DNA from: Candidatus Woesearchaeota archaeon
GTDB lineage: Archaea; Nanobdellota; Nanobdellia; Woesearchaeales; JACRKL01
Assembly: GCA_016219795.1 (NCBI GenBank)
Contig: JACRKK010000074.1
Coordinates: 1-11,597, forward strand
DNA: 11,597 nt
Direction: 5' to 3'
Below, piece by piece: positions 2,772-3,587 of the stretch. Both the position numbers and the translations under genes were made by a program. The notes under the pieces are model-generated. The model had not been told where the DNA came from, searched no databases, and worked only from the letters and a program-made list of their open reading frames with translations. How positions within the stretch are numbered: position 1 is the stretch's first letter; each line of letters starts with the position of its first letter.

Positions 2772-3587
2772 ATGAAACAACTAATATCCATAGGACTTTT
2801 GGCAGCAGCCATTGCAGCAGGTGCAGCTTCTGTGGCAGAAGCAGAAATTGGGGAGGCCCTGCAGGGAGCACCTCCCGGTCAAATACAGATAGTGGGGACA
2901 GTATCGCATACTGACAAGGCTGTTGACCAGGTAGGGAATGAAAAAGAGAATAAAGTGGATGGCAGGCGTCTTGATCTTACCCTTAAAGGAAAAACAAAGC
3001 CCGTTGTCGGACCAATGGGACTTTTCGGTGCAGTAAGTGTACCCTTTATCTCAACAAATAACCGGACCATTGACCAGTCTGTAGCAGGAGTGGGAGATGT
3101 AATTTTTGAGGCAGGTCCTTACTTTAGGTTAGGAGAGCATTGGAATCTAATGACTACTGGAAGAGTTTCTCTTCCTACTGGAAGCAACGATCCAAAACGC
3201 AAGGTCAATTTAGGATCAGGTCAAACAGATAGTGGAGCTTCTCTTAAGGTGAGTGGAGTTTATGGGCCGCTCACCATAGATTCAGTAACCGATTATAATC
3301 ATAAGGGTGGAGTACCAAAAGATTCGCTTGGAGAAAAATTTACTCTTGCAGGGAAATACAAGAAGTGGCAGTTTGGTACTGAAAACACTTTCACCTATGG
3401 GCTTGACGGGAGTAGGAAATTTACTACTGGACCGCTTGTCCGCTACAATTTCAAGGAGGGTATACATCTGACTGGTGTTTTTGGGAAGGATGTGCATGCC
3501 CAAGGGCCCTATCAGGGAAGAACACCCGAAGGATATTCAACCAGCCTGCGCTTCCGGATGCCTCTGAAGATTCCTGGAAGAAAATAA
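2772..3587 (+). CDS. Secreted beta-strand-rich protein resembling outer-membrane beta-barrel 'transporter' (MetA-pathway phenol degradation-like) proteins
   Basis: The N-terminal signal peptide is MKQLISIGLLAAAIAAGAASVAEA followed by E. The remainder shows about 11-12 short amphipathic alternating segments (LDLTLKG, GAVSVPFIS, GDVIFEAGPYFRLG, LMTTGRVSLPTG, ASLKVSGVYG, LTIDSVTDY, KFTLAGKYK, TENTFTYGL, GPLVRYNF, IHLTGVFG, STSLRFRM). The motifs GVGDVIFEAGPYFRL and RVSLPTGSNDPKRKVNLGSGQTD recall the G.GD...Y and lP.G.yd...lG.G signatures of that family. Confidence 0.45.
   Translation: MKQLISIGLLAAAIAAGAASVAEAEIGEALQGAPPGQIQIVGTVSHTDKAVDQVGNEKENKVDGRRLDLTLKGKTKPVVGPMGLFGAVSVPFISTNNRTIDQSVAGVGDVIFEAGPYFRLGEHWNLMTTGRVSLPTGSNDPKRKVNLGSGQTDSGASLKVSGVYGPLTIDSVTDYNHKGGVPKDSLGEKFTLAGKYKKWQFGTENTFTYGLDGSRKFTTGPLVRYNFKEGIHLTGVFGKDVHAQGPYQGRTPEGYSTSLRFRMPLKIPGRK

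Follow-up and report, generated by a model that had tools for sequence, protein, structure and literature searches.

The 11,597-nucleotide contig JACRKK010000074.1 of a Candidatus Woesearchaeota archaeon (assembly GCA_016219795.1), which as a whole we refer to as the window, carries a gene for a protein that belongs to a family of bacterial outer-membrane β-barrel channels, placed head to head with a gene for a transcription regulator of the TrmB family. Transmembrane barrels of the outer-membrane class are regarded as a mark of diderm bacteria and of the organelles descended from them, and Omp85/BamA is generally taken to be needed for their assembly. We consider it likely that the barrel protein of the window is an anciently acquired, TrmB-controlled channel for hydrophobic or amphipathic molecules, which does not depend on the β-barrel assembly machine (BAM) and is native to a clade of DPANN archaea. 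An earlier note, written from the sequence of the window, had described the gene as encoding a secreted bacterial-type outer-membrane β-barrel in an archaeal context. The open reading frame that it delineated is real (Table 1), and a hidden Markov model (HMM) search, structure prediction, fold search and gene context agree with the description.

By sequence, fold and most of its loop-cluster motifs, the barrel protein belongs to the PF13557/COG4313 family. Its one Pfam match is PF13557 (Phenol_MetA_deg), reached at E = 5.1e-11 with 43.5 bits, where the gathering score is 22; this is the very family and accession given in the earlier note. The match covers profile positions 48-235 of 242, and 13 of 17 aligned relatives match the same profile on their own. 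With the barrel protein alone, searches of NCBIfam and of PDB sequences yielded no match, and a word-indexed protein search returned only the protein itself. Relatives were collected in one exhaustive phmmer pass over 1.84 billion representatives at E < 1e-3, which gave 19 proteins. Leaving aside the query and one match that is local and of low complexity, none of them exceeds 38% identity. That match, a peptidoglycan-recognition protein of Shouchella with 1107 amino acids (P0021), was dropped from the list, from which 17 sequences make up the alignment A1. With A1 as the query, the word-indexed search gave at least 3 proteins.

AlphaFold2 produced no fold from the single barrel sequence (predicted local distance difference test, pLDDT, of 28.8). 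Given A1, it returned a closed-barrel-type model with a mean pLDDT of 86.7 and a predicted template-modelling score of 0.81. The model has 12 strands, in keeping with the 'about a dozen' counted previously, one of them, strand 4, being broken by a bulge at a GxGD motif. On one face of the strands, 59% of the residues are hydrophobic and 12% charged, compared with 18% and 27% on the opposite face. In a Foldseek search of the PDB, the model matched 4RL8 best (E = 4e-10, TM-score 0.77/0.78, root-mean-square deviation 3.1 Å over 272 columns), the structure of the COG4313 outer-membrane channel Pput2725 from Pseudomonas putida F1 (PMC4493636). FapF, FadL, autotransporter β-domains, NanC and OmpG ranked next, and the best 50 matches listed are all bacterial outer-membrane transmembrane barrels. 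The A1 profile also recovers 4RL8 by sequence (E = 6e-5), pairing GxGD with GVGD and PTG..N-L-G with PTG..N-L-G; its matches to FapF are weak (E ~0.25).

Among these more distant matches, FapF (5O65), the autotransporter β-domains and NanC are plugged barrels that share a 12-stranded architecture with the target (Foldseek TM-scores of 0.56-0.63), whose plug is putative. However, the target has no coiled-coil, periplasmic or passenger domain and no fap-type operon, and its sequence similarity to these proteins is not significant. FadL and TodX resemble the target in their proposed mechanism, in which a plugged barrel lets hydrophobic substrates diffuse laterally (PMC4493636; Foldseek TM-score ~0.5), but FadL has 14 strands, ~420 amino acids and a large hatch domain, and it belongs to another Pfam family.

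It is highly improbable that the protein is instead a soluble one, that is, a secreted β-sandwich, jelly roll or lipocalin-like binder with a spurious HMM match. The failed single-sequence prediction would fit such a protein, and alternating hydrophobic and polar strands occur in soluble barrels too. The alignment-based model, however, is confident and matches only transmembrane barrels, the best of them being the crystal structure of the family; the Pfam score is twice the cut-off; and the mature protein, with 14.6% glycine and no cysteine, has one hydrophobic strand face. With a significant HMM match and fold and profile matches to transmembrane barrels, we therefore reject the soluble sandwich or jelly roll, a fold that the earlier note had named as the outcome that would speak against its claim.

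The likeness to bacterial channels extends to the loops. For a conserved COG4313 cluster in L2-L4, comprising D92, T94, P119, T120, G121, Y123, N130, N134 and N166 of Pput2725, van den Berg et al. proposed that hydrophobic substrates leave the barrel sideways there (PMC4493636). Both motifs singled out in the sequence beforehand are present (Table 1), and D109, P135, T136, G137 and N146 of the target align to D92, P119, T120, G121 and N130. All five residues are conserved in the family. D109 and G137, together with G106 and G108, are almost invariant in A1, and G115 is invariant.

For Pput2725, an N-terminal plug in the lumen has been described (PMC4493636), and the segment EIGEALQGAPP of the target is its putative counterpart. 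In COG4313 channels, some 14 or more residues ahead of strand 1, with conserved acidic and Gly positions, occlude the lumen. The 11 residues of the target segment, which include Glu and Gly, follow the predicted cleavage site and precede strand 1; they are modelled as the coil leading up to the first strand (E36), with a pLDDT of 67-88 in the AlphaFold2 model on A1. Inspection also bore out the cleavable-looking signal peptide: in the N-terminus, MKQLISIGLLAAAIAAGAASVAEA followed by E, a basic n-region leads into ~15 residues of hydrophobic core, and the site of A-x-A type is kept across A1. The cleavage site was assigned by inspection only, and residues 1-22 have a pLDDT below 50 in the model.

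It is at the ends of the mature chain that archaeal and bacterial members part. Phe or Tyr is the last residue in 22 of the 25 bacterial homologues, whereas an aromatic residue closes only 2 of 20 archaeal members; the other 18 end in K, R, P or H, and a basic C-terminal tail of 5-25 residues is often found. The target ends in ...RFRMPLKIPGRK and lacks the terminal aromatic residue, usually Phe, of the β-signal that characterizes BAM-dependent outer-membrane proteins. Judged by their sequences, most archaeal members have swapped this residue for a basic tail. With the terminal residue of the β-signal lost, the barrel would have to fold in the membrane without BAM, and we infer that the archaeal barrel is BAM-independent. 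The mature N-terminus differs as well, reading D-F-x-E-A-x-Q-x3-P-G-Q in archaea versus N-Y-x-x-G..P-G-Y in bacteria.

The contig is Woesearchaeotal and the barrel gene is native to it. The gene falls within the range of the contig in GC content and tetranucleotide distance and also in codon usage, which correlates with that of the remaining contig at r = 0.76. The archaeal surroundings claimed beforehand are confirmed by the TrmB gene and by a FlaI-like ATPase encoded in the window: the ATPase has more than 6000 homologues, the best 120 of which are full length and 62-70% identical and, where named, come nearly all from Candidatus Woesearchaeota or DPANN. (One near-full-length homologue, P0138, is 64% identical and labelled 'Armatimonadota bacterium'; it probably derives from an archaeal contig mis-binned into a bacterial genome assembly.) Wherever the context of a relative of the barrel could be read, archaeal informational genes are present on the contig. 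On these contigs, which reach 535 kb, we found genes for fibrillarin, Nop5, Sec61beta, NAC, L35Ae, thermosome, aIF2gamma and S6e, and further for L21e, L15e, Rpb4, prefoldin, primase small subunit and Hef. The organism names of family members, where given, are Woesearchaeota, Nanoarchaeota, Candidatus Nanoarchaeia and Thermoproteota, as metagenome-assembled genomes (MAGs).

Bacterial outgroups were obtained from a motif-based DNA pattern scan of GTDB species genomes, which served this purpose and not as an archaeal census. It gave 96 loci, mostly chance matches in GC-rich bacteria, among which hmmsearch identified 26 true homologues, 25 bacterial and one archaeal (L001). The bacterial ones come from Geobacteraceae, Syntrophaceae, Elusimicrobia, Planctomycetia and others, and in a neighbour-joining tree the archaeal proteins group apart from them. 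As far as these sequence comparisons reach, the barrel family is an old, diverged and rare archaeal subfamily of DPANN (Woesearchaeota; Nanoarchaeia in GTDB), which most likely goes back to a single ancient acquisition by the archaeal clade from anaerobic diderm bacteria. A recent bacterial acquisition, or a bacterial or chimeric mis-assembled contig, both raised by the earlier note, has next to no probability and was rejected: although COG4313 is overwhelmingly bacterial (PMC4493636) and the contig is a short, 11.6-kb MAG piece, composition and codon usage are uniform, the archaeal sequences form a separate clade, no relative is above 38% identity beyond the two entries mentioned, the ATPase is Woesearchaeotal, and a module of TrmB gene, operator-like palindrome and barrel gene recurs on independent contigs from different samples, of which the 8 with readable long context carry archaeal informational genes.

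The regulator accompanies the barrel almost throughout. In 10 of 11 distinct family members, the barrel gene or its operon has a TrmB gene transcribed in the opposite direction beside it, directly adjacent in eight (the window, P0017, P0027, P0008, P0030, P0018, P0031 and P0010) and paired at the level of divergent operons in two (P0011 and P0020); P0026 alone departs from this arrangement. The six partner TrmB sequences that were compared are 25-50% identical over ~250 amino acids, a divergence similar to that of the barrels, and the C-terminal parts of the partner proteins vary (244 to 662 amino acids).

Between the two divergent promoters lies a GC-rich palindrome, CCCCC-TTA-GGGGG, set in AT-rich intergenic DNA with TATA-like boxes on both sides. 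The palindrome recurs at the same site in five other loci (L003 at 9917, L108 at 9916, L010 at 4009, L113 at 7920 and L114 at 7917) and, as the variant CTCCC-TAA-GGAGG, in L007 (~9926) and L112 (~6093). Its centre is 51-52 nucleotides from the TrmB ATG in 5 loci, and a TATA-like element follows 8-11 nucleotides past it in homologous loci. Strict matches number 4 in 125 kb of archaeal loci, all at this intergenic site, and 0 in 687 kb of bacterial loci. The palindrome is probably the operator of the TrmB-family regulator. The TATA-to-ATG geometry of the TrmB gene suggests a leaderless transcript. On the barrel side, the TATA box and Shine-Dalgarno sequence read from the window previously are both present (Table 1), and most homologous loci have elements resembling GGAGG or GGTGA ahead of the barrel ATG.

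This arrangement resembles that of TrmB and TrmBL1/Tgr of Thermococcales in three respects: the regulator has an N-terminal winged-helix TrmB domain, it adjoins a transport-related gene that it presumably controls, and a palindromic, putative target site is found close to the transcription factor B recognition element (BRE) and the TATA box. It differs in that the gene presumably regulated here encodes a β-barrel and not an ATP-binding cassette transporter. The Thermococcales glycolytic motif is unlike CCCCC-TTA-GGGGG, and by the Thermococcales precedent a site upstream of both TATA boxes fits activation or BRE occlusion. Three findings are new here and did not figure in the earlier note: the pairing with TrmB, the palindrome and the missing C-terminal signal.

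Set beside the bacterial COG4313/PF13557 channels, namely Pput2725, TcpY of Cupriavidus necator and SphA of P. aeruginosa, the archaeal protein is alike in having ~250 mature residues, a Sec signal peptide, a 12-stranded barrel, an N-terminal stretch leading up to strand 1, the loop cluster of GxGD and PTG..N-x-G and an adjacent dedicated regulator gene. It is unlike them in its archaeal host, for which no outer membrane or BAM is known, in its basic tail instead of a terminal aromatic residue, and in its archaeal TrmB protein and GC-rich palindrome, where bacteria use an AraC/LysR-type factor. Its identity to 4RL8 is only 17-18%, and the archaeal proteins form a clade of their own. Full-text literature searches on archaeal and DPANN β-barrels, porins and diderm Woesearchaeota brought up neither archaeal family members nor any DPANN β-barrel or diderm Woesearchaeote; the one related item concerns a barrel in Altiarchaeales, to which we return below.

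On our preferred reading, that of a regulated, BAM-independent channel native to these archaea, the 12-stranded barrel with its N-terminal plug segment would be exported by Sec and would fold into a bilayer without BAM. The TrmB protein would bind the palindrome and control both promoters, probably as a ligand-responsive switch for the barrel. The barrel would use a plugged lumen and a lateral opening (PMC4493636) to let small molecules of hydrophobic or amphipathic character, either lipid-like or aromatic, through a lipid layer external to the cytoplasmic membrane or sideways into it. The analogy with TcpY, SphA and Pput2725 would make this the most likely class of substrates; the genes neighbouring the barrel in family loci provide no consistent clue.

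Several points weigh against this reading. We know of no BAM-free insertion route for a barrel of the COG4313 family, and the envelope ultrastructure of Woesearchaeota is undocumented in the literature searched. The Pfam listings for ~170 kb of DNA around the barrel genes, which is a minor fraction of each genome, contain no other outer-membrane protein or biogenesis family and no Omp85. The family members enter the analysis as sequences and models, with barrel closure, plug position and aromatic girdle judged by TM-score and DSSP only; the neighbour-joining tree carries no support values, and its bacterial sample was drawn by a motif pattern. The target also departs from the loop-cluster consensus, having N in the position of Y123 and G in that of N134 and not keeping T94; the family consensus retains Y at the Y123 position. 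Finally, the family is rare, with ~20 clusters against the more than 6000 homologues of the neighbouring ATPase, which is hard to square with a general outer-membrane component.

The membrane in which such a barrel would reside can be named with graded confidence at best. It appears evenly balanced to us whether one of two situations applies, either a second outer membrane with a BAM-independent barrel or a barrel planted in the membrane of a partner to draw lipids from it. Taken singly, the archaeon's own outer lipid layer is a tentative choice, the membrane of a partner or host cell is rather unlikely, another surface location is unlikely to the same degree, and something else altogether is improbable.

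Were the barrel placed in the archaeon's own envelope, the carriers would be diderm, with the termini of the barrel facing the inter-membrane space and the barrel serving as an inducible uptake channel. Double-membraned archaea exist, as exemplified by Ignicoccus and Candidatus Altiarchaeum, and a barrier outside the cytoplasmic membrane would give a use to an uptake channel for hydrophobic molecules. The bacterial logic, moreover, is kept in the signal peptide, the even strand number, the putative plug and the mostly conserved L2-L4 cluster, as it is in the dedicated regulator beside the channel gene, which has a bacterial parallel in sphR-sphA (PMC4493636). A distant β-barrel relative, described as PopA-like, is mentioned in passing for Altiarchaeales (PMC12228718). 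These points have to be held against the rarity of the family within the lineage, the lack of a second outer-membrane protein family and of Omp85/BamA in the Pfam listings of flanking DNA, the loss of the terminal β-signal residue and the failure of our literature search to find an ultrastructural report.

In the alternative that we regard as rather unlikely, the secreted barrel enters the membrane of another cell, a partner or host, at the contact site, forming a conduit or lateral gate for the scavenging of lipids and hydrophobic metabolites. DPANN symbionts depend on host lipids, and a basic C-terminal tail without a BAM signal would suit self-insertion from outside near anionic head groups. 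COG4313 channels are known to handle lipid-like molecules such as sphingosine (PMC4493636). The closest of the sampled bacterial homologues belong to Geobacteraceae, Syntrophaceae, Elusimicrobia and Planctomycetia, which are typical anaerobes of sediment and groundwater, so that donors or hosts may live nearby. However, we know of no monomeric barrel of the outer-membrane class that crosses two envelopes and inserts from outside, and no co-conserved secretion or attachment genes were found, type IV pilus-like genes being near the barrel only in the window.

If either of these placements is true, be it in an outer membrane of the archaeon's own or by insertion into a partner, the protein would be the first integral β-barrel of the outer-membrane class with a native archaeal role. 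It belongs to a conserved and presumably regulated archaeal barrel family that keeps the channel motifs but drops the end recognized by BAM, and whose genes bear on the existence of diderm DPANN archaea, on barrel folding without BAM and on the supply of hydrophobic metabolites to lipid-dependent DPANN. The TrmB-palindrome-barrel module, for its part, would be a compact archaeal regulatory unit.

Table 1. Features of the barrel locus, other genes of the window and oxidoreductase clusters in related loci (positions in the window unless a locus is named).
Feature	Position	Strand	Remarks
TrmB-family transcription regulator	1903..2661	-	252 amino acids; divergent from barrel gene; PF01978, E 2.6e-13
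TATA-like box of TrmB gene, TTTATATG	2684..2693	-	~25-30 nucleotides before TrmB ATG
GC-rich palindrome, CCCCCTTAGGGGG	2707..2719	.	candidate TrmB operator
TATA-like box of barrel gene, TTTATATA	2728..2735	+	in upstream sequence
Shine-Dalgarno-like AGGTGGT	2760..2766	+	5 nucleotides before barrel ATG
Barrel gene	2772..3587	+	271 amino acids, stop codon included in coordinates; NCBI MBI5389496.1, annotated 'transporter', locus tags HZB01_
Predicted Sec-type signal peptide, residues 1-24	2772..2843	+	cleavage between VAEA and E; by inspection and family site (A-x-A before D/E-F/I)
Mature N-terminal segment EIGEALQGAPP	2844..2876	+	ahead of strand 1; conserved in A1; putative counterpart of COG4313 lumen plug
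GxGD motif, GVGDVIFEAGPYFRL, residues 106-120	3087..3131	+	L2/strand 4 bulge; aligns with GVGDLTL of 4RL8
PTG...N-x-G motif, RVSLPTGSNDPKRKVNLGSGQTD, residues 131-153	3162..3230	+	long loop L3; aligns with PTGNYNRDDALNLGEN of 4RL8
Basic C-terminal tail LKIPGRK	3564..3584	+	past last strand (251-264); no terminal aromatic residue
339-amino-acid protein	153..1172	-	TTG start
220-amino-acid protein	1237..1899	+	
MTS/PrmA-like methyltransferase	3691..4338	+	
164-amino-acid protein	4344..4838	-	
413-amino-acid protein	5108..6349	+	
TadC/FlaJ-like membrane protein	6353..8614	-	753 amino acids; NCBI 'type II secretion system F family'
FlaI/TadA-type ATPase	8618..10918	-	766 amino acids
2-oxoacid:ferredoxin oxidoreductase clusters, L001	7641..9976, 11298..14237		flank barrel on both sides
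2-oxoacid:ferredoxin oxidoreductase clusters, L003	5192..7900, 11063..14055		flank barrel on both sides
2-oxoacid:ferredoxin oxidoreductase cluster, L113	9846..12794		downstream of barrel

Some genes recur around the barrel in related loci. The MTS/PrmA-like methyltransferase comes after the barrel gene in the window, and a 535-kb contig of JGI 3300072015 encodes a pair of similar methyltransferases two genes past the barrel on its downstream side (locus positions 12628-14052), preceded by an aldehyde:ferredoxin oxidoreductase that starts 7 nucleotides past the barrel stop codon. This proximity of barrel and methyltransferases may reflect a loose functional link. In L112 (6644-7948, plus strand) and L114 (9072-10397, plus strand), the operon-like cluster of the barrel includes a B12-binding radical SAM enzyme. 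The two enzymes, of 434 and 441 amino acids, are 33% identical (E = 8e-74); compared with NCBIfam, they have no equivalog and show weak likeness to lipid, hopanoid and RiPP (ribosomally synthesized and post-translationally modified peptide) class-B radical SAM enzymes. L114 also has a UbiE-like methyltransferase. In one sub-branch of the family (P0017, P0026 and P0010), 2-oxoacid:ferredoxin oxidoreductase clusters stand beside the barrel, with fibrillarin and Nop5 nearby, and this synteny is kept across samples. The small open reading frames adjoining the barrel gene (54-149 amino acids) have no mutual homology.

In the remainder of the window, the FlaI/TadA-type ATPase, which is conserved very widely among Woesearchaeota, has an N-terminal extension of ~250 amino acids and adjoins the unusually large, polytopic TadC/FlaJ-like membrane protein; the two make up an assembly pair of the type IV pilus or archaellum kind. 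The 339-amino-acid protein bears only a weak likeness to the archaeal, type II glyceraldehyde-3-phosphate dehydrogenase, scoring 33 bits where the cut-off is 185, and the 220-amino-acid protein has a C-terminal ACT domain like those of aspartate kinase regulatory regions, both being diverged from curated families. The 164- and 413-amino-acid proteins have no match in Pfam or NCBIfam; an N-terminal hydrophobic segment in the latter suggests export or membrane anchoring.

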